Positions 3,974 through 52,029 of a DNA stretch of 64,000 nucleotides are shown one piece after another. Source of the stretch: Candidatus Woesebacteria bacterium RIFCSPLOWO2_01_FULL_39_61 (lineage in GTDB: Bacteria; Patescibacteriota; Microgenomatia; UBA8517); contig MGHI01000039.1 in the NCBI GenBank assembly GCA_001793155.1, forward strand, positions 1,119 to 65,118, read 5' to 3'. The notes under the pieces are model-generated. The model did no database searches. It was not told the DNA's origin and saw only the letters and a list, made by a program, of their open reading frames with translations. Both the position numbers and the translations under genes were made by a program. Position 1 is the first letter of the stretch; every line of letters begins with the position of its first letter.

Positions 3974-3983
3974 TTATCTTATC

Positions 3984-5180
3984 TTAATACATAAGTAAAT
4001 ATCTGATAATAAGGAAAGAATTAATCATAAAAAGGAAAAATATGCTCGTAAGTATAAATGCTAGGTTCACTTGTTTCATTAGTTTCTCGATAAAGTAGGC
4101 GAGACCAAAGGTAATTATTGGGTAAGTCGTTATCAGCATCCGAATACTATATGATCCTCCCTGATAATAGTCTCGCCACGAAGCGATTAGATAAAGTTGT
4201 ATTAAAAAATAGAAAATCCCCATAAAACTTATCAATTTTTGCTTTTTCCAAAATAAAAATAATCCAAATAGACCCAGAGCAATCGTAGGAGTTAGTATAA
4301 AAAGCCCGTTCTGGATGTTAAAAAGTACATAACTTATATGGGGTGAAAGAAATGTGAACCCATAACCCCAACCGTAAGGCGGAAAATAAAAGTCAAAAAA
4401 TATTTTCCAAAGATAGATTTGAGGAAGAAAGCCGAGGAGGATACCAGTAACAAGTAACAAGTAACAAGTAACAAGAATTTTTAGATGCTTTCTGAACTTA
4501 AAAAATATCGCGATAGCGGGAATTGTAAAAATAATAATATCCTGCGTTCTTATAGTTCCAGCAAGTCCCGAAAGAATCCCAAGTATAAAAACGTCGCCGA
4601 GCGTGAGGTTTTCTAGTTTAGTTGACAAATAATAGACCACAAGTGAAGAGATAAAAAAAGACACAGCGTGGGAATTTATTGGTTCGACGGCGATATAGAA
4701 TAGGAGATTTGTGGTTGCAAAGAGAATAAATGCTGCAAATAAGCTGCTTTGGTTTTTAAAATATTTTTTCAAAGTATGGTAGACAAAAAATAGACCTAGC
4801 ACACCGAGAATGATGTTTATTAACCCGACGGCAAATTGATAAGTGAGCTCCAGTCCTGTTCTTTGCAAAGTTATCAATCTAACGAGGTTATCGGTTAGCA
4901 AATACGGAAAATACCATAAAATGGCAGACCCTGGAGCAAAGGTGTTTATCGCCAGACCTCGCGAGTTAACTGATGGTTTTATACCCAAAAGTTCGAAATC
5001 GTTTACTAAATTTATATCGCGATCAAAAACCCAGGATCTTACGTAGGCATAATAAAATTTACCGTCGCCAAAAACTGCGTTTTTGGTAAAGATGGTATGA
5101 CCAATAAAGATTACTATCGAAAAAATAAATATATATGTAAAAAATTTTATTGTGGCAATTTGCTTAATAGCTTTTTCCAT
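3984..5180 (-). CDS. polytopic membrane protein, possible GT-C-fold glycosyltransferase (ArnT/PMT-like)
   Basis: 398 aa with about 11-12 hydrophobic helices; contains the in-frame (GTAACAA)x4 tract. Confidence 0.4.
   Translation of the reverse strand: MEKAIKQIATIKFFTYIFIFSIVIFIGHTIFTKNAVFGDGKFYYAYVRSWVFDRDINLVNDFELLGIKPSVNSRGLAINTFAPGSAILWYFPYLLTDNLVRLITLQRTGLELTYQFAVGLINIILGVLGLFFVYHTLKKYFKNQSSLFAAFILFATTNLLFYIAVEPINSHAVSFFISSLVVYYLSTKLENLTLGDVFILGILSGLAGTIRTQDIIIFTIPAIAIFFKFRKHLKILVTCYLLLVTGILLGFLPQIYLWKIFFDFYFPPYGWGYGFTFLSPHISYVLFNIQNGLFILTPTIALGLFGLFLFWKKQKLISFMGIFYFLIQLYLIASWRDYYQGGSYSIRMLITTYPIITFGLAYFIEKLMKQVNLAFILTSIFFLFMINSFLIIRYLLMY
4447..4475. repeat. heptanucleotide tandem tract (GTAACAA)x4 inside a CDS
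   Basis: Direct reading: gtaacaagtaacaagtaacaagtaacaag. Confidence 0.8.
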
Positions 5181-8542: not shown

Positions 8543-9619
8543 ATGGCACTTTTTAGTAAGAAAAATAAAGAAGATGAATATGAGGATGAAGAGGAGTTGG
8601 TCCCAAGGAGAAAATCTTTGAGAAACAGGGATTTTAAAGATTTAAAACCCGAAAACCGCAAGAAGAGAAAAGAACCTCCGAAACCGTGGGGAAAAACCGA
8701 AAGATTATTGGTGCTACTAGTTTTAATATTAACAGCCGGAACGTCTTCCTTTTTAGCCTTGCAAAGTAGGGGCTGGAAGCTGCCGGGACTTCCCAGGCTT
8801 AAGATTCCATCCATATCTATTCCCTTTTTAGGAGAAAAAACAATTATTATCGAGGGTGACAAAAAAAATCAGGGGATGAAAGAAAAAGCAACCGTTGCCT
8901 TTAAAAGTATGACAAAGGAACTTTCGGGAGTATATGGCCTTTACGTATTGAGGTTAGACGATGGATCAAATTATGGTGTTAACGAAAATGAGATTTTCCA
9001 AGCAGCCTCGCTTATCAAACTACCGGTAATATTTGCCATGTATAAGGAGGCGGAAGGAGGAAATATAGACCTGGATAACAAATACCGATTGAAAAGAACC
9101 GATAAGGTAGCGGGTTCGGGGAGCTTATATCAAAAATCCGAAGGGTATCTTATCACCTATAGAGAAATGGTGAGGCTAATGGGTAAACAGTCCGATAACA
9201 CAGCCTTTAATATTCTGGTAAAGCTTTTAGGTAAGGACAAAATTGAAAGTGTAATCAAAGAACTGGGAATGATCCAGACATCCTTAGATAAAAACGAGAC
9301 AACTCCGGAAGATGTTGGTATCTTTTTTGACAGACTCTATAACGGAAATCTGATTTCAGACGCTTCTACAAATGAAATCTTAGAAGATTTAACGGATACA
9401 ATATATGAGGATTGGCTTGTGGCGGGAATCCCAGGGGTGATCAGAGTTGCACACAAATACGGTCGTGAACTTCATATTGTTAATGACGCCGGAATTATTT
9501 TAAGCGATAAGCCATTTGTATTAGTAATTATGAGTAAGGGGATTGTTGAAAAAGAAGCAGATGAAATTTTCCCAGTAATTACACGAGCTGTTTACGAAAT
9601 TGAGACCGGCGGATTTTAA
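8543..9619 (+). CDS. membrane-anchored class A beta-lactamase/PBP-like serine hydrolase
   Basis: Charged N-terminus plus TM; SxxK (ASLIK), SDN (QSDNT) and KYG motifs. Confidence 0.55.
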   Translation: MALFSKKNKEDEYEDEEELVPRRKSLRNRDFKDLKPENRKKRKEPPKPWGKTERLLVLLVLILTAGTSSFLALQSRGWKLPGLPRLKIPSISIPFLGEKTIIIEGDKKNQGMKEKATVAFKSMTKELSGVYGLYVLRLDDGSNYGVNENEIFQAASLIKLPVIFAMYKEAEGGNIDLDNKYRLKRTDKVAGSGSLYQKSEGYLITYREMVRLMGKQSDNTAFNILVKLLGKDKIESVIKELGMIQTSLDKNETTPEDVGIFFDRLYNGNLISDASTNEILEDLTDTIYEDWLVAGIPGVIRVAHKYGRELHIVNDAGIILSDKPFVLVIMSKGIVEKEADEIFPVITRAVYEIETGGF

Positions 9620-13626: not shown

Positions 13627-15969
13627 TTATTCTACTACCTGATTATTCGTCGGTTCAATAGAAAGAGGATGCTTTATTGTCGCCGAGTGCGACGAGGCGG
13701 CAATTGTGCAGTCTAGGCATACGAAAGTATCCAAAGGATCGTATAAAACATGCTGTTGCCTGACCTCAATATTTTCGGGCGGAGTGCTCTCATTTATAAA
13801 TCCGCCGGTAGTTCTGTCAAAATGAACATCCTGAACCCCTCCCTTAATAATTAGGGGAGTTGTATTTTCCAGGAAATAGTCAAAACGGGTTTGACAACCT
13901 ACTGGACCAGGGGCCGGGTTATCTTCCGGACCGGATGGTATTATGCCGGTATCTATACAAACATTTGCTCCGATAACGTCTTCTGGTTGTTTAGGCCAAG
14001 CATGTTCTTTATCTAACTCGCTATAACTTCCTATCTCCGCCTTATCTAAAACTTCCTTCATAATTGAATTCCAGATTGGTGATGCTCCGGAAACTCCGGA
14101 TACGGCGCGCGTCATCGGAGAATTATCATTATTTCCTACCCAGGTGACAACCAATGCCTGACTGGTATAGCCAATGGTCCAGTTGTCCCGAAGATCGTTG
14201 GTCGTACCGGTTTTTACTGATACCTCGGGATGGCCTTTAACGTTTAGAAATGAACTCGTTCCGAAAGCAGCAGACCTGGCATTGTTGTCGTGGAGGATAT
14301 GCGAGATTATAAAGGTGACAGCCGGGGAAAGAACCTTATCTCCTTTTAAATTAATTTCCTCGGGTTTAACTTCTTCAATAACCTTTCCCCTCCAGTCCTC
14401 GACCTTGAGAATAGAAATAAGCGGCTGTTTAATACCGGAATTTGCTAGAACACCAAAGCCAACCGCCATGTCAAAGGGTCTTACTTCACCGCCGCCAAGA
14501 GTTAAGGATAAACCGTAATCAGATGGATCCCTAAAAGTAGTAATCCCCATTTCTTTGGCAAAGTCGATAAAGTTTTCTATACCATTTAGCGCCAATACTC
14601 GAACAGCCGGAATATTGTATGAATTTCCAAGGGCAAATCTTACCTGTACCGATCCGTGGAAGTTCCCGTCGTAGTTTCTGGGACAATAATCAGCTTGTCC
14701 TGCTACTTTAAAACAGGTAGGTACATCAGCCAGGGGAGTTGATGCGGTTATTTTCTTGTCTCGCAAAGCGAGAGCATAATTTAAGGGCTTAATCGATGAG
14801 CCTGGTTGTCTTTGAGCAAAAATAATGTTTACTTTCCCATCCTCATCTTGGGCAAAATAATCCTTGGATCCGACCATTGCCAAAATCTCTCCCGATCCCG
14901 GCCGGGTTACGAGCGCAGCCCCGTTTCCCACCTTTTGTTTACTTAACTTTGCAACCTCCGTTGCAACCTTCTCTTCGGCGTAATCCTGCAGGTCCAAATC
15001 GAGTGTTGTAGTTACCCTTAGTCCTCCTTTTTCAACGACTGCATCCGAATATTTTTCCGCAAGTTGTTCCTTGACCCAAAGTGCAAAGTGGGGAGCCTTT
15101 AATTTTTCGGGTTCGGCATATTTTAATTCTTCCTCGCTGGCCTTATCGGCTTCTTCCTGTGAGATATATCCGTCAGTAACCATAAGTCTAAGCACCGTCT
15201 CTTGCCTTCCTTTTGCAAGTTCCGGGCGAGATCCGAAGGGAGAAAAACGTGAGGGTGCTGCCGGTAAACCTGCCAAAAGAGCCGCTTCTGCCAATGTTAA
15301 ATCACTAGCCTCCTTGCCAAAATAGGTTTCTGCCGCTGCACCGATTCCGTAGGCGGTCCCGCCATAGGGGATTTGATTTAAATAAAGTTCAAGTATTTTA
15401 TCTTTGGAATATATAGATTCGACCAAAAGAGTTAAAACAAATTCCCTTAACTTTCTTCGGACAGTCCGCTCGGGCGTTAAAAGTACATTTTTAACCAGTT
15501 GTTGGGTCAGGGTTGAACCTCCTTGGAGTTTACCCTTGAAAATAGTGTTATAGGCAGCACGTACGATTCCCGTATATGAGACGCCGTAATGCTTGTAAAA
15601 ATCTTTATCTTCAATCGAGATTGTTGCTTTTTTTACATAATCCGGTATTCCGTCTAACTTGATGGGGGTACTTTTTTTGTCCGCATAAATTTCATATATA
15701 ATTTTGCCGTTTCTGTCAAAAAGTTTTGTCGAGACGGGAACCTGGGACGTTGCAAGCTTGGTTGGTAGCGGAATTGCCCAAAAAAGCCACAGTCCGAAGC
15801 TAACCAGTATTCCGAAGAAAAATATTTTTTTCTTTCTCCTTTCACTCGCAAAAAAGTTTCTGATCTTCGAAAAAGCTCCGATTTTTACCACCCTCGTTTG
15901 CCTTTTTCTTTGGGGTTTAATAGCAGATTTTTTAACTCCCCTGGTTTTCTTTATGTTTTTCTTTATCAT
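13627..15969 (-). CDS. class A penicillin-binding protein (PBP1A-type), second paralog
   Basis: Same GT51 and TPase motif set (EDKDFYKHYGV, GGSTLTQQLVKN, SSIK, KTGTTN). Confidence 0.85.
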   Translation of the reverse strand: MIKKNIKKTRGVKKSAIKPQRKRQTRVVKIGAFSKIRNFFASERRKKKIFFFGILVSFGLWLFWAIPLPTKLATSQVPVSTKLFDRNGKIIYEIYADKKSTPIKLDGIPDYVKKATISIEDKDFYKHYGVSYTGIVRAAYNTIFKGKLQGGSTLTQQLVKNVLLTPERTVRRKLREFVLTLLVESIYSKDKILELYLNQIPYGGTAYGIGAAAETYFGKEASDLTLAEAALLAGLPAAPSRFSPFGSRPELAKGRQETVLRLMVTDGYISQEEADKASEEELKYAEPEKLKAPHFALWVKEQLAEKYSDAVVEKGGLRVTTTLDLDLQDYAEEKVATEVAKLSKQKVGNGAALVTRPGSGEILAMVGSKDYFAQDEDGKVNIIFAQRQPGSSIKPLNYALALRDKKITASTPLADVPTCFKVAGQADYCPRNYDGNFHGSVQVRFALGNSYNIPAVRVLALNGIENFIDFAKEMGITTFRDPSDYGLSLTLGGGEVRPFDMAVGFGVLANSGIKQPLISILKVEDWRGKVIEEVKPEEINLKGDKVLSPAVTFIISHILHDNNARSAAFGTSSFLNVKGHPEVSVKTGTTNDLRDNWTIGYTSQALVVTWVGNNDNSPMTRAVSGVSGASPIWNSIMKEVLDKAEIGSYSELDKEHAWPKQPEDVIGANVCIDTGIIPSGPEDNPAPGPVGCQTRFDYFLENTTPLIIKGGVQDVHFDRTTGGFINESTPPENIEVRQQHVLYDPLDTFVCLDCTIAASSHSATIKHPLSIEPTNNQVVE

Positions 15970-37622: not shown

Positions 37623-38012
37623 ATGATAAAAGGTATTGATGCAGTTACACTTTTTAGCGAAAACGCAGAAAAACTTGCTAAATTTTACAAAGAAAAAGTT
37701 GGCTTAAAACCAACTGGTGAATTTGTAATGGGTGAGGGAAAAGATGAGGCTAATGTATATATGTACGAATATAAAAAAGGTGGCGATTTTGCGATAATTG
37801 ACCACTCAAAAGTGAAAGGAAAGAATAAGAATCCGGAAAGATACCTCGTTAACTTCGAAGTTGATGATATAAAGAAAGAAGTTGCCAAGCTTAAAAAGAA
37901 TAAGGTTAAGGTTATTGCCGATACTTACCATGTAGAAGGGTACGGTTGGGTTGCAACTTTTCAGGATATTGATGGAAACTACTTTCAGCTGGTACAAGTT
38001 AGACCGAGTTAG
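37623..38012 (+). CDS. VOC/glyoxalase-family protein
   Basis: Small beta-alpha-beta-beta-beta modules; ORF track 37557.. trimmed to the ATG. Confidence 0.5.
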   Translation: MIKGIDAVTLFSENAEKLAKFYKEKVGLKPTGEFVMGEGKDEANVYMYEYKKGGDFAIIDHSKVKGKNKNPERYLVNFEVDDIKKEVAKLKKNKVKVIADTYHVEGYGWVATFQDIDGNYFQLVQVRPS

Positions 38013-38036
38013 TAGATAGCAAATAGTAGATAGAAG
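38009..38036. repeat. left inverted-repeat arm (agtagat agcaaat units) flanking the four-helix-bundle gene
   Basis: ttagtagatagcaaatagtagatagaag; its reverse complement recurs at 38439..38485. Confidence 0.8.
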
Positions 38037-38061
38037 ATGGGAAAAAAGATAAACTGTCTTA

Positions 38062-38424
38062 GTGGCTAAAATCGAAAGATTTACAGATCTTAAAGCATGG
38101 CAAGAAGGGCACCAATTAGTCCTTATGATCTACGGAGTTGTCAAGACTTTCCCAAAAGAAGAAAACTTCATCCTTACTACTCAAATACTCCGAGCTGTAA
38201 TATCTGTTACTAATAATCTGGCTGAGGGGTTTGGTAGAAGATATTATAAAGAAAAAATTCAGTTTTATTCGATGGCCAGAGCTTCATTGGTTGAAGTTTG
38301 CAATCAACTTATGATAGCCAGAGATGTTGGTTATTTGAACAGAAAAGACTTTGACTTTGTATGGGAACAAACTGACAAAGTAGGTAGATTAATTACAGGA
38401 TTAATAAAAAGTATTAAAAAATAA
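38062..38424 (+). CDS. four-helix-bundle protein (TIGR02436-type, the '23S rRNA intervening sequence protein' family)
   Basis: LKAWQ...FPKEE...LTTQILRAV.S...NLAEGFGRR motif series typical of the family. Confidence 0.85.
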   Translation: MAKIERFTDLKAWQEGHQLVLMIYGVVKTFPKEENFILTTQILRAVISVTNNLAEGFGRRYYKEKIQFYSMARASLVEVCNQLMIARDVGYLNRKDFDFVWEQTDKVGRLITGLIKSIKK

Positions 38425-38438
38425 GACTTAGTCCTATA

Positions 38439-38485
38439 ATTGCTATTTGCAATCTACTATTTGCTATCTACTATTTGCTATCTAC
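38439..38485. repeat. right inverted-repeat arm (atttgct atctact units, three copies)
   Basis: attgctatttgcaatctactatttgctatctactatttgctatctac. Confidence 0.8.
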
Positions 38486-38489
38486 CAAA

Positions 38490-40535: not shown

Positions 40536-41471
40536 ATGCTCGAGAAAGTTCTGGAAGTCAACAATTTAAGCAAAAGCTTTGGCAAGACAAAAGCCGTCAA
40601 AAATATTTCCTTCCATATTAACGAGGGTGAGATTGTTGGACTTTTGGGACCCAATGGCGCCGGAAAGACTACAACTATTCAAATGCTTTTGGGTACTTTG
40701 ACTCCCACATCGGGGGATGCTTGGTATTTCGGAAAAAGTTTTAAAGATCACAGGGAAGAAATCTTACAAAAAGTTAACTTTTGTTCGAGTTACATAAGGC
40801 TTCCCTGGAGACTGACAGTATATGAGAATTTAGATGTTATCGCGAGGCTTTACGGAGTAAAAAATCGCAAAAGGCGAATCAAGAAACTTTTGGATGCCTT
40901 TGATATTTCCGAATTCGAAAAACGGCCGTTCGCCTCGCTCTCGGCAGGTCAGATAATGAGGGTAGTACTTGCAAAATCTTTTATAAATTACCCGAAAGTA
41001 ATTTTGTTGGATGAACCAACTGCAAGTTTGGATCCGGATATTGCCAAAAAAGTTCGTGACTTTCTGATACGAGAGCAAAAAGAGTTCCAGGTTTCAATGC
41101 TTTATACCTCACATAATATGGCGGAGGTAGAGAGATTGTGTGATAGAGTAATATTTTTAAATAAAGGAAAAATCCTCGCTGAAGATACACCGTTGGGTCT
41201 GGCAAATAAAATTGACATTTCAAGAGTCGACTTACTCATTAATAGAGATATCACCAAAGCCCAAGGAATTTGTGTGGAAAATAAGTGGAAGGCGAACATA
41301 TCGGATAACTTTTTAAAAGTAGAGTTGAAAGAAAAAGATATATCAAAATTACTTTCAACATTAGCAAAGTCAGGTATCGACTACAGCGAAATTAGTATAG
41401 ATAAACCGACTCTGGAGGACTTTTTCTTACAAGTTTCAAGTAAAGGCAAGTTGCCTCAAAAGGAGAAATAA
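40536..41471 (+). CDS. ABC transporter ATP-binding protein (ABC-2 exporter type, with a C-terminal extension)
   Basis: Walker A GPNGAGKTT, signature LSAGQ, Walker B ILLDEPT. Confidence 0.85.
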   Translation: MLEKVLEVNNLSKSFGKTKAVKNISFHINEGEIVGLLGPNGAGKTTTIQMLLGTLTPTSGDAWYFGKSFKDHREEILQKVNFCSSYIRLPWRLTVYENLDVIARLYGVKNRKRRIKKLLDAFDISEFEKRPFASLSAGQIMRVVLAKSFINYPKVILLDEPTASLDPDIAKKVRDFLIREQKEFQVSMLYTSHNMAEVERLCDRVIFLNKGKILAEDTPLGLANKIDISRVDLLINRDITKAQGICVENKWKANISDNFLKVELKEKDISKLLSTLAKSGIDYSEISIDKPTLEDFFLQVSSKGKLPQKEK

Positions 41472-41472
41472 C

Positions 41473-42258
41473 ATGAACTGGAACGCCGTCAACGGTATAA
41501 TTTTTAGGCATTTATACAATTTTAAGCACAGCTGGGATAGACTGGCAGACTCCTTTTATTGGCCGGCAATGGATATTTTCCTTTGGGGTTTTACCAGCGT
41601 TTATATAGCCAAGCAGGCAGGCAGTATTCCCCAAATAATAGTGGTCTTGCTGTCTGGCCTAATTCTTTGGCAGGTTGTTTGGCGTGCGCAATATGAAATT
41701 TCGGTTAATCTTTTAGAGGAAATGTGGAATCAAAATATAGTCAACCTTTTTGCATCCCCCTTAAGAGTCCGAGAGTGGGTTGTCGGTGCGTTTATTTTGG
41801 GCCTTATTAAAATGTTCTTTTCAATTTCCTTCGCCACAATCTTGGCTTACATTTTCTACAAAGCGAACATCTTCAGCCTGGGATTTTACCTTATCCCTTT
41901 CATTATAAGTCTCATGATTACAGGTTGGTCGATAGGTCTTATTGTCTCGGGATTAATAGTGAATTTCGGTATGCGAATCCAAACTATAGCTTGGGGCGGA
42001 ATATTCTTGCTAGCCCCATTTTCGGCCGTTTATTATCCGATTTCTACGCTACCTTCCTGGGCGCAAAAGGTCGCAGCCTTTATTCCGACAAGTTATATCT
42101 TTGAAGGCATGAGAACTATCATATTCACCGGCAAAATGTCTGAAGACTTACTTATTAAAAGTTTTCTATTAAATGGACTCTTTTTATGTTTTGGAATTGT
42201 TACTTTCATACTAATGTTTAAAAAAAGCAAAGAAAAAGGTCTTGCCCGCTTAGAGTAA
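41473..42258 (+). CDS. ABC-2 type transporter permease
   Basis: Six hydrophobic helices; paired with the upstream ATPase, 1-nt spacing. Confidence 0.75.
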   Translation: MNWNAVNGIIFRHLYNFKHSWDRLADSFYWPAMDIFLWGFTSVYIAKQAGSIPQIIVVLLSGLILWQVVWRAQYEISVNLLEEMWNQNIVNLFASPLRVREWVVGAFILGLIKMFFSISFATILAYIFYKANIFSLGFYLIPFIISLMITGWSIGLIVSGLIVNFGMRIQTIAWGGIFLLAPFSAVYYPISTLPSWAQKVAAFIPTSYIFEGMRTIIFTGKMSEDLLIKSFLLNGLFLCFGIVTFILMFKKSKEKGLARLE

Positions 42259-42259
42259 T

Positions 42260-43147
42260 ATGCCGGAATTACCCGAAGTCGAGTCGATTAAATTGCAGCT
42301 TAGTAAATATGTTGTTGGCCATAAGATCGAAGCCGTTGATGTTCGAAACCAAAAGATTTTTCAAGGTAAAACCAGCGATGTCGTTGGTGCAAAAATTAAG
42401 GAAATCAGAAGATTTGCAAAGGTGTTATCGATCGATCTTTCCAATGGCAATTCTTTGGTCATTCATATTAAGTTGACGGGCCAGCTAATTTATCGAGGTC
42501 CGAATTTGTCGGTCAAAGGCCGATCGTCTTCTGGACGAAAAACTGTTCCGCCCCTTTCTAAAAAGGTGATGGGAGGAGTTCCTGGGCCTCACACCCACGT
42601 TATTTTTGATCTTGATGGGGGTGGATTTCTTTACTACAACGACATAAGACGGTTCGGTTGGGTAAAAGTTATAAAAACCAAGGACGTAGAGAAAACCGGT
42701 TTTATAGGTAAGTTGGGTCCTGAGCCTTTCAAAGATTTAACTCTCCAATATTTCGAAAAAGTTCTTTCTAAGACCGCGAGAACGATAAAAGTTGTTTTGA
42801 TGGATCAAGCTAAAATTGGTGGAGTCGGTAATATTTATGCTAATGATGCCCTCTGGCTATCCAAAATTAATCCAAAGACACCTGCAAGCCAGTTGAGCGA
42901 TAACGAAGTTAAGGATCTATATGACTCTATCCATAAAGTTTTAAAGGCCGGGATGAAATATGGAGGTGCGTCGGAACTTGCTTTTGTTACGCCTGATGGG
43001 GCCGAGGGGGAGTATCAAAAACACACTTTAGCATATGGCCGGGATGGTGAGCCTTGCGAAAGATGCCACAAAGCCAAAATTCAGAAATATTTCCTCTCCG
43101 GCCGCGGTACGTATTTTTGTCCTATATGTCAGATATATTTGAGTTAA
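42260..43147 (+). CDS. mutM: formamidopyrimidine-DNA glycosylase (Fpg/MutM)
   Basis: N-terminal MPELPEVE, H2TH, C-terminal zinc finger C..C...C..C. Confidence 0.9.
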   Translation: MPELPEVESIKLQLSKYVVGHKIEAVDVRNQKIFQGKTSDVVGAKIKEIRRFAKVLSIDLSNGNSLVIHIKLTGQLIYRGPNLSVKGRSSSGRKTVPPLSKKVMGGVPGPHTHVIFDLDGGGFLYYNDIRRFGWVKVIKTKDVEKTGFIGKLGPEPFKDLTLQYFEKVLSKTARTIKVVLMDQAKIGGVGNIYANDALWLSKINPKTPASQLSDNEVKDLYDSIHKVLKAGMKYGGASELAFVTPDGAEGEYQKHTLAYGRDGEPCERCHKAKIQKYFLSGRGTYFCPICQIYLS

Positions 43148-43485
43148 AATCAATTCCATTTGAGAAAAATTGTTATGCGTGAATACAAAAAGTATCGTAC
43201 CTGTGGTAGCTACCTTTTTACCCCAAGTGCCAGGTCTAAAAATTGACAATAAAAGGAAAAAACCACTGTTCCAAAGGAACCTATTTCTAATGTTCTCTGG
43301 GGTGTTAACTTCTGCACGTCTGTCAGATGACGTTTTAACATTAGACCGCTATGTCGGATCTTCTCAACGCACAAAGACGGAAAGACCCTTTCCCAAATAA
43401 GTTGTTAAGCCTTAGTGTAAACAGATTTTTATAAACCTTAAGAGACTCGATATATGTCTGATTTTTCTTTTCTGGGACGACAGCT

Positions 43486-43869
43486 TTGTTTTGGATACCT
43501 TCGAGCCTACGCTATTGCAAGATTATACTCGTTGGTTATAAAATTTTAATATATATGACAGACGTTTCTGTACTTTTGAATTATGTCGAGGCATCAGGTA
43601 TTGAAGATATTAGTTCTATATTAAATCAAGCGACAGAAAGATTCTCAAACGGGGAAATTAACCTCAGACAATACAAGGAAATATTGATGAGTATTGCTAA
43701 AAGAACTGATAAATTAGCCAAGGAAATTTATCAAAAACAAGAAACTGATCAAAACACGAGATTAATTGATATAGAAGAGTACAGGACACTTCTAGATATT
43801 TCTAGGGAATGCAGAGATGGACTAAGGCAAATAGTATTGATTAGGGGCTACGACGACAAGATTAAATAA
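43486..43869 (+). CDS. hypothetical cytoplasmic protein
   Basis: 127-aa ORF; the likely real start is an internal Met around 43555. Confidence 0.4.
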   Translation: MFWIPSSLRYCKIILVGYKILIYMTDVSVLLNYVEASGIEDISSILNQATERFSNGEINLRQYKEILMSIAKRTDKLAKEIYQKQETDQNTRLIDIEEYRTLLDISRECRDGLRQIVLIRGYDDKIK

Positions 43870-43901
43870 AAAACAACTTTTATTATTAACCCTTTGGTCT
43901 A

Positions 43902-45725
43902 ATGGAAGAAAGTAAAGAAGAATCTCGAAATCTACGTCAAATCGAAGCTCAGAGAATTATTTCTCCAGAATTGTCTTTTCCTTGGCAGCTGCCAGATAGA
44001 ATTGGTATAGCAACACCCCAAGGATTAAAAGAAACTTCAATAGGGAGCATATCTGGAGAGGAAATGACCCATAAAACTTCAGAGATCGTAACGTACGAAC
44101 TCAAATTCGATACAGAGCCTGGTGACGAACTTGCTACAATTGAGTTTGTGTTGAAAGGAGTAAGTGAAAAAGATTACACGGTAATAACTTCTGGCTGGCA
44201 TACATGGTCTGGAAAAGAAACAAGAGGCAAACAAGTAGGAATTTCTTCGGTTTCTGGAAGAACCAAAGGAGGAAGGAGCAATTTTGTAGTAGAACCCGGT
44301 ATGGGGGGTATTACCCCGAAAGGTGAAGGAACAAGTTACGGCTGGCTTAACTTTAGAAAGAACGATGGGAGTGAAAATATTGCGGTAGGGGTTATTCCGA
44401 GCCTTGATACGATTGAAGACATTAAGTTTAAGCAAGTTGATGAAGACATGGTTGTTACACTTAGAAAAAGGCTAGAGGGAGTAACCCAATCTAAAAAGAG
44501 AGAGATTAAAGTTTTTATGGGTCGTGGGAATTACGCTGATTTGACTGAGAAATTTGCACAAGAGCTTGAAAAATTAGTTGGAGAAGTTAAACCAATGAGA
44601 GACAGAAAGATTTGGTTTACTTGGGCGGCCTACGGAAAGTGGATAACTCAAAAAGAAGTTGAAGGGGAGATTCCAGTCGCAAAGGAGGTTGGTGTAGATA
44701 CGATTATTATAGACGACGGCTGGCAAAACCTTTCGGGTGACTGGGACATTAAACCTCAAAAATTTCCAGATATGACCGGGTTTATGGAAAAAATGAAAAG
44801 GGAGGGTATCAGACCTGGAATCTGGGTTGCGCCTTTTATGGTTATGCCTAATTCTGAATTTCATCGAGAACACCCTGATTGGTTAATGAAAGATAAGAAA
44901 GGAAGAGAGTTAACGGTTTCAAATCCCCAGATGCAGCCAACAGGAGCCGCGCTGCCTTTAGCCCAAAGAGCTTTTGGACTTGATGTTTCAATTCCTGAAG
45001 CTAGAGAATTTATACAAGAAAAACTGGTTCGTCTTTCGAAAGTGGGGTTTGATAGTTTTAAGTTAGACTTCATATCAATTCCCTTTATGGGACCTTTAAA
45101 ATACAAGGATAAGACATCTGTTGAGTATTACCGTCAGTTTTTTTTAGAGCTAAGGGAAAAAATTCGCGAACAAGCCCATAAGGATATTGAGTTGATTGGT
45201 TGTGGTGCACCTATGATGGAAAGTATTGGCCTTTTTGAGGGGATTAGGGTATCTCCAGATAGCGCTTGGCCGAATCTAGAGAGGATGCAGCTTCCTTATC
45301 TTAATAAAACCCTGGGCTCACTCTTAGAAAAGAAGCCTAAGATTGCGGAAGTTTTTGATAAAATCTTAAGGCGAATTGAAAATACTACCTATAGGGACGC
45401 TGCGGCGGTTGCGTTTAGAAGAGCACTAATTTTTGGGAAAGCACACGGGCTCATTCTTGACGGGATACACCTTAATGACCCGAAGATACATATAGACCCC
45501 GAAAGGAAAAAACGTTTATCGCTGGCTCTTCCAGCCTTAAAAAAGTTGGGTGCGATTAGTAATCTTTTTGTTGGTGATAGTTTAATAAGAGCCGGAGAAG
45601 GTGGGAGGAAAGAATGGGGAGCATTCTTGGATAGGTTTTCGAGAGGAGAGGTTGGAAATATAACTGAACCAATATTAAAAGTGGAAAGTGCGGTGGCCAG
45701 TTCAACCTCAGACGGTCAAGTGTAG
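43902..45725 (+). CDS. glycoside hydrolase, alpha-galactosidase-like (GH36/GH27 clan) with an N-terminal domain of unknown function
   Basis: IIIDDGWQ and FPDMTGFMEKMKREGIRPGIWVAPF catalytic-region motifs. Confidence 0.55.
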   Translation: MEESKEESRNLRQIEAQRIISPELSFPWQLPDRIGIATPQGLKETSIGSISGEEMTHKTSEIVTYELKFDTEPGDELATIEFVLKGVSEKDYTVITSGWHTWSGKETRGKQVGISSVSGRTKGGRSNFVVEPGMGGITPKGEGTSYGWLNFRKNDGSENIAVGVIPSLDTIEDIKFKQVDEDMVVTLRKRLEGVTQSKKREIKVFMGRGNYADLTEKFAQELEKLVGEVKPMRDRKIWFTWAAYGKWITQKEVEGEIPVAKEVGVDTIIIDDGWQNLSGDWDIKPQKFPDMTGFMEKMKREGIRPGIWVAPFMVMPNSEFHREHPDWLMKDKKGRELTVSNPQMQPTGAALPLAQRAFGLDVSIPEAREFIQEKLVRLSKVGFDSFKLDFISIPFMGPLKYKDKTSVEYYRQFFLELREKIREQAHKDIELIGCGAPMMESIGLFEGIRVSPDSAWPNLERMQLPYLNKTLGSLLEKKPKIAEVFDKILRRIENTTYRDAAAVAFRRALIFGKAHGLILDGIHLNDPKIHIDPERKKRLSLALPALKKLGAISNLFVGDSLIRAGEGGRKEWGAFLDRFSRGEVGNITEPILKVESAVASSTSDGQV

Positions 45726-45771
45726 GTAGAGACTCTTGCTTTGAAATAAAAAATTACGAACTTGTGAGTAG

Positions 45772-45847
45772 TGTCACAAAGTCAAGATTCAAAAATACTC
45801 TCTCTCTGGTCGCGGAACCTACTTATGTCCCTTATGTCAGAAATAGA
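45772..45847 (+). pseudogene. diverged duplicate of the fpg 3' end (zinc-finger fragment)
   Basis: Frame translation CHKVKIQKYSLSGRGTYLCPLCQK* versus the Fpg C-terminus CHKAKIQKYFLSGRGTYFCPICQI; coordinates within about 1 nt. Confidence 0.6.
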
Positions 45848-46931
45848 GAAAGCAAGGAAAGCAACGATAGAAAGGTGTGTTGTTAATTTAAATCAAGAGA
45901 AAGTAAAAGTTGGGGATTTTATTTTAAATAAAAATTCAAAAGTAATTGTTGATGGGGAGATTAGAGATAGAGTGGTTTGGTCGGGGGATCTTTTTACTTC
46001 CGGTCCGGCAGCAGCTAAATACCTTAAAGATGGGCTTTTGTATTGGCGCAATTCACTTCTTCTTACTACCTCGAAAATTTACAAGAGCGGAAAACTCCCG
46101 GCCTGTGTTTCTCTAAAAGGAAAGTACAGATTTCTGTCTTACTTTTTTGACACTTACGGAATGTGGTGGATTATTTCTGCGGATGGTTATCTTAAAAGAA
46201 CAAAAGACAAGAAATTCAGGAAATTTTTCCGACAAATACTTTCTAGTGTGATTGGTTTTTATTTGAAGAATGTAGGAAAAAAACTTATTTATAAAACGGG
46301 AAGGATAAATTTCTATTCCAACTGGACAGTGTTTAGACCAAGAGAAAATGTTTTGACGAATGTTTTACTATTTAAGTGCCTGCAAATTTATGAAGACCAT
46401 GGTTTTCGATCACCCTTTAGTTTGAGCGACTATAAAAAGGCAATTAATCAAAGATTTTGGAACAGGAAAGAAAGTTTATATTTTGATAACGAGCAAAGAG
46501 GGCTGGCCTTTTTGGATGGAAATTCATTATGTCTTATGTTTAGTTTGGCTACGAAAAAAAGAAAAGTAAAGTTAATTGATTCTCTAAAAAAGTTTGACAC
46601 ACCTTTTGGGCCGAAAGCTTATATAGGTAATCCCAGGTCGATAACTTCATATCATAAAAATATTGTTTCACCCTTTATTGCATATGTTTATGCTCTTGCT
46701 CTAACGAGGGTCGGTCATCAAAAAAAGGCAAGGATAATAGTGCAAAAAACAATTCTATCCGGACTTAATTTATCAAAAAAGTTCGGACAAGTTACTATCC
46801 CAGAGTTTTGGAAAATCAACGGAGAATTAGGTGCAAGAGCGGTTACAAGCAATAGGTTTAAATATGGACGAAGTCTTTGTCATGCTTGGAGTACGTTTGG
46901 GGATTACATCATTTTTCCGAGTACAAGTTGA
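45825..46931 (+). CDS. hypothetical protein, possibly a six-hairpin (alpha/alpha)6 glycosidase-like fold
   Basis: ORF track 45771..46931; start uncertain because the 5' part overlaps the fpg fragment; C-terminal CHAWS resembles glycosidase barrels. Weak. Confidence 0.35.
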   Translation: MSLMSEIEKARKATIERCVVNLNQEKVKVGDFILNKNSKVIVDGEIRDRVVWSGDLFTSGPAAAKYLKDGLLYWRNSLLLTTSKIYKSGKLPACVSLKGKYRFLSYFFDTYGMWWIISADGYLKRTKDKKFRKFFRQILSSVIGFYLKNVGKKLIYKTGRINFYSNWTVFRPRENVLTNVLLFKCLQIYEDHGFRSPFSLSDYKKAINQRFWNRKESLYFDNEQRGLAFLDGNSLCLMFSLATKKRKVKLIDSLKKFDTPFGPKAYIGNPRSITSYHKNIVSPFIAYVYALALTRVGHQKKARIIVQKTILSGLNLSKKFGQVTIPEFWKINGELGARAVTSNRFKYGRSLCHAWSTFGDYIIFPSTS

Positions 46932-48009
46932 TTAGTCTTTCGGCGGTTTTATTGGTTGAGAAGTTTTGGGCGCTTTTGTAGGCATTCAAGGAAAGTTTAT
47001 AAAGGATTTTAGGATTTGAGAAAAGATATTCGATTTTATCTGCTATTAATTTGGGGTTTCCTTTTAATATAAATCCGGTTTTTCCGTCCTTAATTATTTC
47101 TTCCAGCCCCGAGTTTTTAAGTGCAATTACGGGTAATCCAGAACCCAGCGCTTCCAGTAAGGAAAGCGGCATAACTTCAGATTTCGATGCTGTTATAAAC
47201 AAATGTGCCGATTTATAAATATCGGGTAGAAGGTAACGATTTACTCCTCCTGTAAATAGAATATTTTCTGCAAGTCTGGATTTGTACGCCTTTTGATTAA
47301 GTGCGGCAAGTTGAGATCCCGAGCCTACGATAATGAACCTGAAATTAGGTAGGATCTTCTTTAGATCCTGCGTGACTTTTAAGAGAAATAGAGGATCTTT
47401 CTCCTTTTCAACCCTTCCTGTATAAACCAGAGTGGGTTGACTCAAGCTTTTTTTCTTGGGTTTTATTAAAAACTCCCGCTCGACGCCATTATACACAACC
47501 GTTGTATTAGGGATTCCATATTTTTTTAGACGAACTTCTGTCTTTTGGGAAGGGCATATGACCTTTTTGCAGCGTTTACCCAAGTTGATTAAATTTTTGA
47601 TAATTATTCTGGAAGTGAAGTCATAACCGTGGGGAAAATAGTAATTTAGATACTGCTCGTATTGGGTGTGGGCAGTAAAATATAAGGGGAGATTAAGTTT
47701 ATCTGCAAGCTGGGATGCATATTGGCCAATGATTAGTGGATGGTGAGTGTGAATTATATCGAGTTTTATTTTTTTAATTTTTGCGAAAAGTACTAAAGGG
47801 ATACCCAAAGGATAGCTTTTTACAAAGGGATTGGGAAGTGAGGGATAGCGAATAACATCTTTGTCGGTATCTTTATAACCGGGGAAAGTGGGGGCTAAAA
47901 TAAAAACCTTGTGACCCATTTTTCTTAAAGCCTTGGTGGTTGAGTTTATGTGATAGGTTACCCCATTTACAGTAGGTAAGTAGGTAGCTGTAACAAATAA
48001 GATTCTCAC
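46909..48009 (-). CDS. GT4-family glycosyltransferase
   Basis: LEALGSGLPVIALKNSGLEEIIKDGKTG. Confidence 0.8.
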   Translation of the reverse strand: MRILFVTATYLPTVNGVTYHINSTTKALRKMGHKVFILAPTFPGYKDTDKDVIRYPSLPNPFVKSYPLGIPLVLFAKIKKIKLDIIHTHHPLIIGQYASQLADKLNLPLYFTAHTQYEQYLNYYFPHGYDFTSRIIIKNLINLGKRCKKVICPSQKTEVRLKKYGIPNTTVVYNGVEREFLIKPKKKSLSQPTLVYTGRVEKEKDPLFLLKVTQDLKKILPNFRFIIVGSGSQLAALNQKAYKSRLAENILFTGGVNRYLLPDIYKSAHLFITASKSEVMPLSLLEALGSGLPVIALKNSGLEEIIKDGKTGFILKGNPKLIADKIEYLFSNPKILYKLSLNAYKSAQNFSTNKTAERLINLYSEK

Positions 48010-48034
48010 AAGGTGTATTATATACTTTTAACGG

Positions 48035-49132
48035 ATGCGTATTAATAAAATTAGACTTTCAAATTTCAGAAACTTTAAGGCCCAAATTCTGGAGTTTTCG
48101 GAAAAAATCATTGTTATTGTTGGTCCAAATGCATCAGGTAAAACAAATATTATAGAGGCGATATTTCTTCTTTCTACCGGTAAGTCATTCCACGCTCGAG
48201 TCGAGGAAGAGATGGTTCACTACGAAGAGGAAATTGGACGAGTAAAAGGTTCGGTGGTAGAAGCTGACAAAGAAAGAGTCGGTACAAATCTGGAGGTAAT
48301 CTTGACCCGCGGTGAAATTACAGTTGGTGTATCTCCCAAAAAAACCGAAAGGATTGCAAGGAAAAAATTGGTCGTTAATGGAGTTGCCCGGCGTCTGGTT
48401 GATTTTGCCGGGAGGTTCAAGGTGGTACTTTTTGGGCCTTGGGACATGAGTATCGTAACCGGACCCCCAACGCTTAGAAGGAATTTTTTGGACACAGTGC
48501 TATCGCAGGTTGACAGAGAGTATAGAAGGGCCTCCCTTTCCTATGAGAAAGGCCTAAGACAAAGAAACAGACTACTTTTCAGGATCAGAGAAGAAGGATT
48601 ATCGAGAAGCCAGCTTCTTTTTTGGGACCAACTTCTTATCAAAAACGGCAATTATCTAACCCAAAGGCGTGAAGATTTTATTGGTTTTGCAAATAAACGA
48701 CCATCTTTAAATAACCAAGTTTTTAATATTGAATACGACAAAAGTATCATCAGTCAGACCAGGCTGGAGCAGTATAAAGACGAGGAAGTTGCTGCCGCAA
48801 CTACACTGGTCGGACCCCACAGAGATGACTTCATCTTCAAAATCCAAAATCCAAATTCCAAATTCCAAAAAGAAAGAGAACTGAGCAGGTACGGGAGTAG
48901 GGGGGAACAGAGGATGGGTATCTTGTGGCTCAAAATAGCCGAGCTTTCTTTTATCGAGAGCGAATCCGAAGATAAACCGACTCTTTTATTGGACGATATT
49001 TTCTCTGAACTTGATCACGAACACAGAAAGATTGTTTTGGACGTTTCCAAAAACCAACAGACGATCATTACAACGGCTGATCCTCATTATATTGAAGAAT
49101 TTGAGAAAATTGAAATAATTAAGCTAAAGTGA
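48035..49132 (+). CDS. recF: DNA replication and repair protein RecF
   Basis: Walker A GPNASGKTN, signature and D-loop LLLDDIFSELD. Confidence 0.85.
   Translation: MRINKIRLSNFRNFKAQILEFSEKIIVIVGPNASGKTNIIEAIFLLSTGKSFHARVEEEMVHYEEEIGRVKGSVVEADKERVGTNLEVILTRGEITVGVSPKKTERIARKKLVVNGVARRLVDFAGRFKVVLFGPWDMSIVTGPPTLRRNFLDTVLSQVDREYRRASLSYEKGLRQRNRLLFRIREEGLSRSQLLFWDQLLIKNGNYLTQRREDFIGFANKRPSLNNQVFNIEYDKSIISQTRLEQYKDEEVAAATTLVGPHRDDFIFKIQNPNSKFQKERELSRYGSRGEQRMGILWLKIAELSFIESESEDKPTLLLDDIFSELDHEHRKIVLDVSKNQQTIITTADPHYIEEFEKIEIIKLK
48836..48870. repeat. heptanucleotide tract (TTCAAAA TCCAAAA TCCAAAT TCCAAAT TCCAAAA) inside recF
   Basis: Read directly; encodes an N/K/Q-rich loop (KIQNPNSKFQKE). Confidence 0.8.
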
Positions 49133-49146
49133 AATTATATGGAGCT

Positions 49147-49482
49147 TTATTCTTTGTCGTCTTTTTCTGCAAATTTGCTTAGGTTATAAGTGACCATCAC
49201 AGCCAGTGCAGTTACCAATATCGCATAAACCAGAAGAGAAACGAGTCCTGATCCCTCCCCGAAGTATGGCTTAACATAAATATTGACCACCTCCTTGATC
49301 AATTCGTTCCAGGCTAACGCCGCAACCAATCCAAAACCGCTTGTAACCAACTTTAAAGTTCTTTCCGCAAATTGCTTTTTGAATTTACTGGCCTCGTTTT
49401 TCAATTTTGACTGAAGAGCTTTGGTTTCCTCTTTTTGCTCTTTCAACTCTTTCTGGAGCTTAAGTTCTTTAAGGGTAGCCAT
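49147..49482 (-). CDS. hypothetical membrane protein
   Basis: ORF track 49147..49557 trimmed to Met (MATLKEL); C-terminal TM helices. Confidence 0.45.
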   Translation of the reverse strand: MATLKELKLQKELKEQKEETKALQSKLKNEASKFKKQFAERTLKLVTSGFGLVAALAWNELIKEVVNIYVKPYFGEGSGLVSLLVYAILVTALAVMVTYNLSKFAEKDDKE

Positions 49483-49507
49483 GGTTAGTGATAGTATATT
49501 GAGAGAA

Positions 49508-49583
49508 GTAATAAGTGACAAGTAACAAGCGACAAGATTTAGATATTGGAGGGACAACTTGTTACCTGTTACATGTTACTTAG
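49508..49583. repeat. solo inverted repeat of heptad units (GTGACAA/GTAACAA arms, 21-nt spacer)
   Basis: gtaataagtgacaagtaacaagcgacaag ... cttgttacctgttacatgttacttag. Confidence 0.75.
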
Positions 49584-50478
49584 AATTTTTGATAAGTCTG
49601 ATTTAATTAAACTCTACAAACCCCATCCAGAATCTTCAGGGGAAGATAATGGGCAGGTAACGATCGTCGGAGGATCCAAGCTTTTCCACGGAGCGCCGCT
49701 TTTATCTTTGACGACTGCTTCCAGAATTGTGGACATGGTCTTTTTTGCAACACCCGAGAAAAGCGTTGGGATGATCGCAGAAAAGTTAAAATCCAAATTA
49801 CTTTCGTTCATCTGGACACCTTGGGAGGATGTTGAATCCTATATCGAAAAGTCTGACGCCGTACTTATCGGACCCGGATTTATGCGTTTTGGAAGTGAGA
49901 GTACTTCCGAGGACGATCGTGATTTTTCAAACCACAATGAAGGGAAACAATCCAGGGGAATAACGGAAAGACTTTTAAAGAAGTTTCCCGACAAGCGCTG
50001 GGTAATTGATGCGGGGAGCTTGCAGACTATGGACGAAAGTTGGATTCCCAACGATTCTGTTCTCACCCCCAACGTTAAAGAGTTCGAATTGCTTTTCAAA
50101 ATGAAAAATCAAATATCAAATATTAAAGATTCAAATCAAAAATCAAAAATTGTTTTGGAAAAGGCCAAAGAACACAATTGTATTCTTGTTTTAAAGGGTC
50201 CTGAAACCGTCGTTTGTTCACCGGAAGAATGCGTTGTAGTTAGGGGAGGCAATCCGGGGATGTCAAAAGGAGGTACGGGTGATGTTTTGGCCGGATTAAC
50301 CGTTGCACTTTTAGCCAAAAACGAACCCTTTTTAGCGGCGTCCTGTGCAAGTTATATTGAAAAGGCTGCAGCTGATGAACTTTATAAAAAAGTCGGAACC
50401 AACTATAACGCCGATGATTTAACCAATAAAATTCCAGAAACCTTTTATAATTTACTAAATAATAAAGACCTACCCTGA
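49573..50478 (+). CDS. ADP/ATP-dependent NAD(P)H-hydrate dehydratase (YjeF C-terminal domain, Nnr2)
   Basis: GGS..F.GAPLL, DADAL-like, GGTGDVLAG motifs; ORF track 49546.. trimmed to the ATG. Confidence 0.8.
   Translation: MLLRIFDKSDLIKLYKPHPESSGEDNGQVTIVGGSKLFHGAPLLSLTTASRIVDMVFFATPEKSVGMIAEKLKSKLLSFIWTPWEDVESYIEKSDAVLIGPGFMRFGSESTSEDDRDFSNHNEGKQSRGITERLLKKFPDKRWVIDAGSLQTMDESWIPNDSVLTPNVKEFELLFKMKNQISNIKDSNQKSKIVLEKAKEHNCILVLKGPETVVCSPEECVVVRGGNPGMSKGGTGDVLAGLTVALLAKNEPFLAASCASYIEKAAADELYKKVGTNYNADDLTNKIPETFYNLLNNKDLP
50104..50152. repeat. A-rich heptad tract (7 units, AAATATC/CAAATCA-like) inside the nnr CDS
   Basis: Read directly; encodes NQISNIKDSNQKSKI. Confidence 0.7.
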
Positions 50479-50522
50479 GCGAAGCCGAAGGGTTGTTTTT
50501 TCCGCAGAATCTCCGTAAGATA

Positions 50523-50551
50523 GTAACAAGTGACAGGTAACAAGTAAAAAG
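50523..50551. repeat. left inverted-repeat arm (GTAACAA GTGACAG GTAACAA GTAAAAA) ending 3 nt before the four-helix-bundle gene ATG
   Basis: Read directly. Confidence 0.8.
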
Positions 50552-50553
50552 TT

Positions 50554-50925
50554 ATGGAAAAAGCTGGAATAAAACCTGTTGGATACGAGAAACTATTGGC
50601 CTGGCAGGTAGCAGATGAATTCGCGCGGGAAGTTTATTTGTTAACAGATTCTTTTCCTAAACATGAAGTGTATGGTTTGATATCACAATTAAGGCGTGCA
50701 GCACTATCAGTCCCGCTAAATATAGTTGAAGGTCATTCTAGATACAATAAAAACGAATTTCGTAATTTTTTGAGGATTGCTTTAGGATCTCTTGCAGAGA
50801 GTGATTATCTTCTTAAATTTGCTCTTAAAAGAAAGTATATTTCAGATAGTGATTACAAAAAAGTATCCATCTTGCGCGAGAAATGCGGCAAGTTACTTTG
50901 GAGCTTGATGAAATCGCAAAAATAA
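50554..50925 (+). CDS. four-helix-bundle protein (TIGR02436-type), second copy
   Basis: LLAWQ...FPKHE.YGLISQLRRAALS...NIVEG motif series. Confidence 0.85.
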   Translation: MEKAGIKPVGYEKLLAWQVADEFAREVYLLTDSFPKHEVYGLISQLRRAALSVPLNIVEGHSRYNKNEFRNFLRIALGSLAESDYLLKFALKRKYISDSDYKKVSILREKCGKLLWSLMKSQK

Positions 50926-50933
50926 TATTTAAA

Positions 50934-50960
50934 ACCTGTTACATGCTACTTGTTACTTAA
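50934..50960. repeat. right inverted-repeat arm (reverse complement of GTAACAA-type units)
   Basis: acctgttacatgctacttgttacttaa. Confidence 0.8.
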
Positions 50961-50967
50961 AACTGAG

Positions 50968-52029
50968 ATGTATTTTCCGAAGTTTACTATTACCAATAAA
51001 ACTCTGAAGAGTATAGGCCAAATCGAGGCAGCCAAAGAAGTAATAGAAAACGCACCCCTTGTTCCTTACTACGAAAAACAATTTCAGTCCGAGGCAATAG
51101 CTCGGATGGTTCACCACGGAACCCACATTGAAGGGAATGAACTCTCATTGGAACAAACCAGAAAAATTTTGGAAGGTGAAAACGTTGTAGCTTATGAAAG
51201 AGACATTCAAGAGGTAATAAATTATCGTAATGTCATGAACCTTTTGGAAGAACTCGTTCACAAAAGGGGAGGATACGATCTTCAAGGTTTAATCGACATC
51301 CATAAAGAAACTGTTAACAAAATTGTTCCTGATGAAAAAGTGGGGGTTTTAAGAAACACACAAGTTGTCATCAAGGAAGAAGGAAGCGGAGAGGTGATTT
51401 TACAGCCACCACCTTATATTGAAGTTCCGTATCTTATCGATGACTTTCTGGAATGGTTAAACGCAACAATCGCGAAAGAAATTCATCCGATAATCCGAGC
51501 TGGTATTGCACACTACATTTTGGTTGCCATTCATCCCTTTGTCGAAGGGAACGGGCGCACGATCAGAGCTTTCTCGAATTTGATTTTAATGCGCGAGGGC
51601 TATGACATAAAGCGTTTTTTTGCCTTGGAGGAGCACTTTGACGGAGATTTGAGCACTTACTATGAAGCTCTAGCCTTGGTCGATAGACAATCAAAAAATA
51701 TCGCTGCGAGGGATTTAACCAGCTGGCTTGAGTATTTTACCGGAGTCGTTGCTATAGAGCTATCCAAAATTAAAGAGAAGGTCAGGAAAATTTCCATAGA
51801 CACAAAGTTAAAAAGTAAAATTGGCGAACAGATTGCACTAACCGAAAGACAAATGAAACTGGTCGAATATCTTTCCGAAAATAATTCGGCCGGAATGCAG
51901 GAGTTGAGAAGGACGCTTCCAATGGTTTCCGAAGATACAATTTTAAGAGATGTTACAGATCTTATGGAAAAGAAAATCATCAAAAAGCAAGGAAAAACTA
52001 AAGCGTCGAGGTATATAATAAATAAATAA
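50968..52029 (+). CDS. Fic/DOC-family protein with a C-terminal winged-helix domain
   Basis: Fic motif HPFVEGNGRTIR. Confidence 0.8.
   Translation: MYFPKFTITNKTLKSIGQIEAAKEVIENAPLVPYYEKQFQSEAIARMVHHGTHIEGNELSLEQTRKILEGENVVAYERDIQEVINYRNVMNLLEELVHKRGGYDLQGLIDIHKETVNKIVPDEKVGVLRNTQVVIKEEGSGEVILQPPPYIEVPYLIDDFLEWLNATIAKEIHPIIRAGIAHYILVAIHPFVEGNGRTIRAFSNLILMREGYDIKRFFALEEHFDGDLSTYYEALALVDRQSKNIAARDLTSWLEYFTGVVAIELSKIKEKVRKISIDTKLKSKIGEQIALTERQMKLVEYLSENNSAGMQELRRTLPMVSEDTILRDVTDLMEKKIIKKQGKTKASRYIINK

Follow-up and report, generated by a model that had tools for sequence, protein, structure and literature searches.

Why should the end of a DNA repair gene recur, in decayed form, on the far side of a glycosidase gene while the repair gene itself remains intact? 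The question is raised by fpg, which encodes formamidopyrimidine-DNA glycosylase, in a 64,000-nucleotide (nt) stretch of DNA, here termed the window, from Candidatus Woesebacteria bacterium RIFCSPLOWO2_01_FULL_39_61; the source is identified by the Fpg protein of the window, which is 100% identical to that of the record. Comparison with related sequences suggests that the second copy is probably a scar left by host recombination that shuffles sugar-enzyme genes at a hotspot between fpg and recF, and not the footprint of a mobile island. The evidence lies in the decayed copy and the gene fused to it, in the behavior of the fpg-recF interval across related genomes, and in recombination breakpoints within the two flanking genes.

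The orphaned end of fpg and the gene behind it

The resident fpg (42260..43147, plus strand) encodes 295 amino acids (aa) and matches the Pfam families Fapy_DNA_glyco, H2TH and zf-FPG, so that every feature of Fpg/MutM is present (catalytic N-terminus, H2TH and CxxC...CxxC zinc finger). The segment that codes for its zinc finger (PCERCHKAKIQKYFLSGRGTYFCPICQIY; 43052..43138, plus strand) has a counterpart downstream. Positions 43053-43137 and 45761-45845 form an ungapped direct repeat of 85 nt that is 75% identical, with a spacing of 2708, and local alignment of the two fpg ends gives 77% identity over 74 nt. When six-frame translations were searched with a profile of 120 Fpg homologues, restricted to their C-terminal 60 aa, the downstream copy was matched with an i-Evalue of 1.5e-11 to 7e-11. 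A preliminary description of this DNA had reported that the zinc-finger end of fpg recurs at roughly 75% identity, which these values bear out; the bounds that it gave (45772..45847) need correction because the fragment begins about 12 nt earlier, at 45760, and ends at 45846 (plus strand). It comprises only the last 29 codons of fpg and lacks the rest of a complete Fpg/MutM gene. Its translation, TCE*CHKVKIQKYSLSGRGTYLCPLCQK*, is interrupted by an in-frame TAG at 45769, inside the first CxxC of the zinc finger, and has an F to S change in the otherwise invariant YFLSGRG motif. The segment 45760..45846 is an fpg pseudogene fragment. Among the 120 homologues its tail (...CQK*) is the usual one, and that of the resident gene (...CQIYLS*) is atypical.

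The 23 differences between the two copies are distributed 3/4/16 over codon positions 1/2/3. This bias toward third positions has a probability of 4e-4 against equal thirds and of 0.047 against 50%, the share that neutral drift of one copy after a local duplication would produce. The fragment therefore spent most of its history inside a working fpg and is not a recent local duplicate; the two ends are best read as alleles that diverged while both were coding. Divergence of the copies had earlier been taken to mean that a mobile element brought in a foreign version of the gene end. The different ancestry stands; carriage by an element is not supported. In nucleotide identity the resident copy (74%) is about as good a match for the fragment as fpg ends from other Woesebacteria are (65-73%). 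As to whether it is closer to L098, the nearest relative with genomic context (Fpg 78%, RecF 84% and Fic 88% identical), than the resident end, the values of 70% vs 74% over 81 nt have no statistical power. The sole hint of affinity, also without statistical power, is that the GRGT codons of the fragment match those of L098 and the related locus L011.

Behind the fragment lies a six-hairpin glycosidase-like gene (w365; 45834..46931, plus strand) recognized through its homologues, which encodes 365 aa, or 368 aa from an ATG at 45825. It has only six homologues in the protein database, one of which carries PF17389 Bac_rhamnosid6H (a six-hairpin rhamnosidase domain), and none above 42% identity in the databases searched. 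Alignment with five of these homologues places its start at ATG 45834 or 45825; the 386-aa reading frame first assigned to it is therefore over-extended, and the fragment overlaps w365 only by the first 13-22 nt of the latter, in another frame. With the start at 45834, the overlap that ends at the fragment's stop codon is 13 nt. In three related loci (L014, L015 and L016) a homologue of w365 (P0126, 41% identity) directly follows an intact fpg with the identical 13-nt overlap and takes its ATG from the zinc finger's final Cys codon. The common overlap indicates that fragment and w365 together are a displaced native fpg/glycosidase junction, which would make them a piece of an fpg-glycosidase arrangement that once existed elsewhere, in an ancestor or a donor. 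As in C-terminal displacement, a 3' end lies in direct orientation downstream of the intact copy and is still attached to its former downstream gene. Repeat and native junction together uphold the earlier view that a displaced, duplicated gene 3' end marks the site of an insertion or rearrangement. The fragment is dead as fpg, yet it appears to supply the start codon and upstream region of w365. At its other end, w365 has 7 final residues that its homologues lack; their codons run antisense to the conserved 3' end of the neighboring GT4 gene. The GC3 of w365 (0.295) is the lowest in the region, which is a weak hint at most.

Overlaps of 13 nt also occur elsewhere, where unrelated genes that follow fpg begin at the zinc finger's last Cys codon (xxA TGY). 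Examples are the six-hairpin glycosidase in L014-16 (L014 7001..7013) and a 153-aa membrane protein in L018 (6348..6360). These recurring starts suggest translational coupling of whichever gene follows fpg. The resident tail (ATGTCAGATATATTTGAG.., which would read MSDIFE...) was considered as a relic of a second fpg/glycosidase junction and rejected, as there is no similarity past 43138 in the DNA or in any frame.

The variable interval between fpg and recF

Comparison of about 90 Microgenomates loci (Woesebacteria, Levybacteria and Roizmanbacteria) reveals a conserved order, GT4-fpg-[variable]-recF-DUF5654-carbohydrate kinase-Fic-ligase, in which the gap between fpg and recF ranges from -6..27 nt (L004/L087, L022, L027, L031 and L038) up to about 7 kb. 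Filled gaps hold GT2, GT4, GH36-like, GDE-like six-hairpin, methyltransferase and membrane genes. The interval thus has the properties of a transfer hotspot: the same core genes flank it, its content varies between genomes, and the scans described below found no mobility genes in it. Judged with the Fpg C-terminal profile, this species alone has a second fpg end; in the other loci there are neither two fpg copies nor a second fpg C-terminal match within 9 kb. Sites that lack the supposed island, for which the preliminary description proposed to look, exist only in distant relatives. Contigs with an identical Fpg share one architecture, and there is no presence/absence polymorphism: L001-L003, which belong to the same species, differ by 0-1 base over about 17 kb aligned.

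In the window, ABC transporter genes lie upstream of 42260 and the interval opens with a spacer of about 340-400 nt (43148..43554), in which neither a gene nor an RNA family was recognized and which resembles no related locus. It is followed by an orphan open reading frame (ORF) of 104 aa from ATG 43555 or 127 aa from TTG 43486 (43555..43869, plus strand), which has no Pfam match, only sub-threshold NCBIfam and PHROG matches (as have the spacer ORFs in NCBIfam and PHROGs), and no homologue among about 175 related loci fetched. The next gene (43902..45725, plus strand) encodes a predicted 607-aa TIM-barrel glycosidase that is GH36/GH31-like (clan GH-D) by Pfam. It matches Melibiase with E=6e-15 and 55.5 bits (cut-off 27), a match that covers profile positions 47-156 of 347 only, and Glyco_hydro_31_2nd (the GH31 TIM barrel) with E=5e-10 and 39.6 bits. 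The earlier account of a 127-aa gene and a 607-aa alpha-galactosidase-like gene in the interval is accordingly sound, the former as an ORF without a family and the latter through its Melibiase and GH31 matches. The right-hand part of the interval holds w365 and a convergent GT4 glycosyltransferase gene that overlaps it by 23 nt (46909..48009, minus strand; Pfam), and recF (48035..49132, plus strand), identified by Pfam SMC_N and synteny, is the core gene that borders the interval.

Other members of the clade carry similar cargo at the same place. The closest homologues of the GH36-like gene (P0127, P0128 and P0130; 48-52% identity, with no relative above 52% in the databases searched) all lie inside fpg-recF intervals, in the orders fpg-GH36-metallophosphatase-recF (L017), fpg-membrane-GDE-GH36-metallophosphatase-recF (L018) and fpg-GH36-recF (L019), each without an fpg duplication. 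The GT4 gene next to recF has a 57% identical orthologue at the same place in L098 and a 48% identical one in L024, and is native to the fpg-recF interval of this clade. Atypical composition, which had been raised as a possible mark of foreign origin, was not found: the GC (0.412), GC3 (0.339) and codon-usage distance (0.135) of the GH36-like gene are inside the range of its neighbors and typical for the region. What was described as an island looks like the ordinary content of a variable interval.

The flanking core genes contain breakpoints. Relative to L098, nucleotide divergence in fpg rises from 0.20 to 0.36 at about codon 190 (max-chi2 27.2, permutation p=0.002), with codons 1-80 being 86% identical and codons 200-266 being 60% identical; control pairs have no comparable break in fpg. 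In recF the first ~105 nt (to about codon 35, ~48140) are 0.37 divergent, after which divergence falls to 0.16-0.19 (max-chi2, p=0.002-0.008). The interval and the parts of fpg and recF next to it thus differ in history from the outer parts. This pattern is the signature that would be expected of exchange by recombination in flanking core genes.

Mosaicism extends beyond the two genes. Within 40536..52029, L098 and L011 share 87% aa identity in their ABC transporter genes, against only 72-75% with those of the window. Between window and L098, nucleotide identity is 85-89% in fpg codons 1-80, in mid recF and at the end of Fic, and falls to 55-65% in adjacent stretches. This patchiness suggests frequent homologous exchange between lineages that are 15-35% apart. 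Fpg of the window also has an insertion of 10-13 residues (SVKGRSSSGRKTVPP; 42509..42553, residues ~84-98) that is common only to L008 (TSKGRSASGRKNFPP) among the relatives aligned and that the closest relatives (L098, L011 and L099) lack, a distribution that may be read as another sign of a mosaic fpg.

The mechanism, its direction and the route by which DNA entered we infer as follows. The fragment would be what is left of a second Woesebacterial fpg allele that once functioned, an orphaned 3' end still fused to its native follower w365. The stretch 45726..45759, from the stop codon of the GH36-like gene to the first fpg-homologous base, would be the point at which two alternative versions of the fpg-recF interval were joined; the joint is placed there because homology to fpg begins at about 45760 and there is none upstream. 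One end of DNA from a related Woesebacterium would have entered by homologous recombination within fpg or recF, the flanking core genes, while the other end was joined illegitimately, that is, by homology-facilitated illegitimate recombination, with an outcome like C-terminal displacement. Two directions can be envisaged. An incoming fpg 3' part with the 104-aa ORF and the GH36-like gene may have pushed the old fpg end and its glycosidase downstream, or an incoming block from the fpg fragment through the glycosidase and GT4 genes to the start of recF may have landed behind the GH36-like gene with the donor fpg piece as a passenger. Alternatively, the whole interval could have been imported by a double crossover with the scar already present.

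Several points weigh against this reconstruction. The only ground for an illegitimate joint is that 45726..45759 lacks homology, measured rates of homology-facilitated illegitimate recombination are low (Kirchberger et al. 2017; PMC5361080), and natural transformation of this organism is only an assumption. The breakpoints are not polarised (the outgroup L011 is equidistant from both lineages), so the replaced lineage could be L098; mosaic patches are widespread (CarbK, Fic and between the ABC genes), and the breaks in fpg and recF need not date from the scar event. The 81-nt fragment has no power to tell its lineage of origin. Finally, no relative with more than 78% Fpg identity occurs in the databases searched, and neither a parental arrangement nor a precise empty site was found.

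Other possible origins of the repeat

The preliminary description proposed site-specific integration of a foreign island, in which a recombinase, since lost or acting in trans, would have inserted an element that carries a mimic of the fpg 3' end and the 85-nt repeats would be attL and attR. We consider this origin unlikely. The architecture fits islands that target gene ends (intact gene, cargo and displaced end in direct orientation), the copies differ in ancestry, the resident tail is the atypical one, and a second scar of like kind occurs at the tkt locus of the same window. Against these stand the cargo itself, which has typical composition and homologues at the same locus in other genomes without repeats, and a series of negative searches. 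No integrase, recombinase, transposase or other mobility gene emerged when all ORFs in 43148..45759, spacer ORFs included, were scanned with Pfam, NCBIfam and PHROGs, in agreement with the earlier remark that no integrase lies inside; the genes around are fpg, glycosidases, GT4 and recF. No att-like core is apparent, the longest exact run between the copies being 9 nt (TATGTCAGA), which is a weak negative because age could erode a core. Neither terminal inverted repeats nor additional direct repeats surround the insert, Rfam found no RNA families at gathering or relaxed thresholds, and promoter and terminator scans of 42900..46100 gave nothing above background. The suggestion that the fpg end might serve elsewhere as an att-like core finds no support either: besides the lack of a second fpg end in the ~90 loci, no repeat of it occurs at the recF-proximal border of 50 occupied intervals in other genomes, which share only words of 6-11 nt with it, the level expected by chance. 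The segment resembles nothing else in the fetched loci.

Duplication of fpg itself provides a second alternative, and one that we regard as quite improbable. An old duplication (tandem, with or without neighbors), or acquisition of a second copy, would have been followed by a long period in which both genes functioned, until the downstream copy lost its first 265 codons by deletion. The third-position bias, which implies coding selection on the fragment through most of the divergence, and the native-looking junction between the fragment and the next gene are as such a history would leave them. However, none of the ~90 Microgenomates loci has two fpg genes or retains a second C-terminal match, and more steps are needed: acquisition, long coexistence of redundant repair genes in a very small genome, and a deletion that ends just before the last 29 codons.

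A third alternative draws on the tkt locus. The preliminary description had noted a second scar there, which is real, although mirrored, as the displaced piece is a 5' rather than a 3' fragment. A 47-codon 5' fragment of the gene for the C-half of transketolase (1238..1378), 71-72% identical in nucleotides to the sequence from 2521 and without a stop codon, runs straight into a DUF3800 gene (1386..2015); then follow the Rfam DUF3800-III RNA (1978..2080, minus strand), an 88-aa membrane ORF and the intact tkt gene at 2521. In L103, which is from another species (TktC 78%), the unit of fragment, DUF3800 gene and RNA recurs at 3820..5001 with the same junction and 78% identity over 887 nt, and its tkt fragment is 84% identical to its own tkt. 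The tkt fragments of the window and L103 differ at 12/9/22 sites by codon position, a third-position bias that may mean that the fragment ORF is maintained. In many relatives (e.g., L100, L119, L134 and L160) a Nudix gene directly abuts tkt. The fpg and tkt scars together could belong to a so far undescribed kind of integrase-free cassette of the Candidate Phyla Radiation (CPR) that uses a copy of a core-gene end as a homology arm; such a cassette would insert or spread via the gene-end copy, leaving its target intact and an orphan end behind. The tkt/DUF3800 unit, with its orphan tkt 5' end kept as an open reading frame in two species, lends some support to this idea, which we nevertheless hold to be very unlikely.

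The weakest alternative, chance similarity or a fragment that is genuine N-terminal coding sequence of the 386-aa ORF, as the preliminary description allowed, could appeal to the fragment's overlap with that long ORF (45771..46931) in another frame, but it has already been refuted by the profile search (E ~1e-11) and homologue alignment, as 24 of the 29 codons align to Fpg and homologues of the downstream protein begin at ATG 45825/45834, which leaves the 21 preceding codons without a counterpart.

Other repeats in the window concern different genes. Two small PF05635/bAvd ("23S rRNA intervening-sequence protein") genes (38062..38424 and 50554..50925) are flanked by imperfect inverted repeats (38009..38488 and 50522..50957; also 4446..4482 and 49507..49540). 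The first repeat pair spans 30-34 nt with 85-90% complementarity, and the second is of the AGTAACAAGT-type repeat family. Matching gaps without bAvd genes occur in L011 for the first and in L011 and L098 for the second, and the bAvd genes look like small insertions bounded by inverted repeats. Several stretches of 60-90 nt, 72-75% identical and 4092-4155 nt apart, are common to two large paralogous genes (9616..12375 and 13627..15969, minus strand; 919 and 780 aa).

Significance and relation to known systems

If scarring by host recombination is the correct explanation, the locus offers a direct sequence-level trace of gene turnover in an uncultivated CPR lineage: accessory carbohydrate genes come and go at a fixed hotspot that two repair genes flank, through recombination with diverged relatives rather than through mobile elements. 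Annotation benefits in either case: the glycosidase gene starts at 45834 or 45825, not at 45771, and 45760..45846 should be recorded as an fpg pseudogene fragment. The locus also calls for caution in island detection, because a duplicated gene end around accessory genes is insufficient for calling an integrative island.

Islands that are borne by integrases into gene 3' ends, such as the tRNA and tmRNA islands and SCCmec at rlmH, carry a replacement end for their target. The fpg locus is like them in its direct 3'-end repeats around accessory genes and its intact target gene, and unlike them in that it has no recombinase, no exact core and no recurrence in relatives, while its cargo is native to the locus elsewhere. 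Closer parallels exist among integrase-free systems. Transfer hotspots without mobile elements diversify via recombination at flanking core genes (Oliveira et al. 2017; PMC5635113), and the fpg-recF interval resembles them: the same two core genes surround highly variable content in many genomes, mobility genes are absent, breakpoints lie in the flanks, and the flanks are repair or recombination genes, a tendency noted in that paper. It departs from the model of double homologous recombination with clean replacement in that the scar needs one extra illegitimate joint, and the comparison made here spans species or genera within an uncultivated phylum instead of strains of a single species.

Displaced gene 3' ends at rhs, contact-dependent inhibition (CDI) and type VI secretion system (T6SS) effector loci have been ascribed to homology-facilitated illegitimate recombination (PMC5361080, which cites Jackson et al. 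2009, de Vries & Wackernagel 2002 and Prudhomme et al. 2002). As in those loci, an intact gene and new cargo are followed by an old 3' end with its old downstream partner, no integrase is involved, and the conserved upstream part of the gene would act as the homologous anchor. Unlike those loci, the anchor is a housekeeping repair gene and not a polymorphic toxin, there is a single displaced end and no array, the cargo consists of carbohydrate enzymes, there is no sign that selection keeps the orphan, and the mechanism is deduced. The fpg repeat is thus a known kind of scar in a little-studied lineage, a piece of genome history and not a new system.

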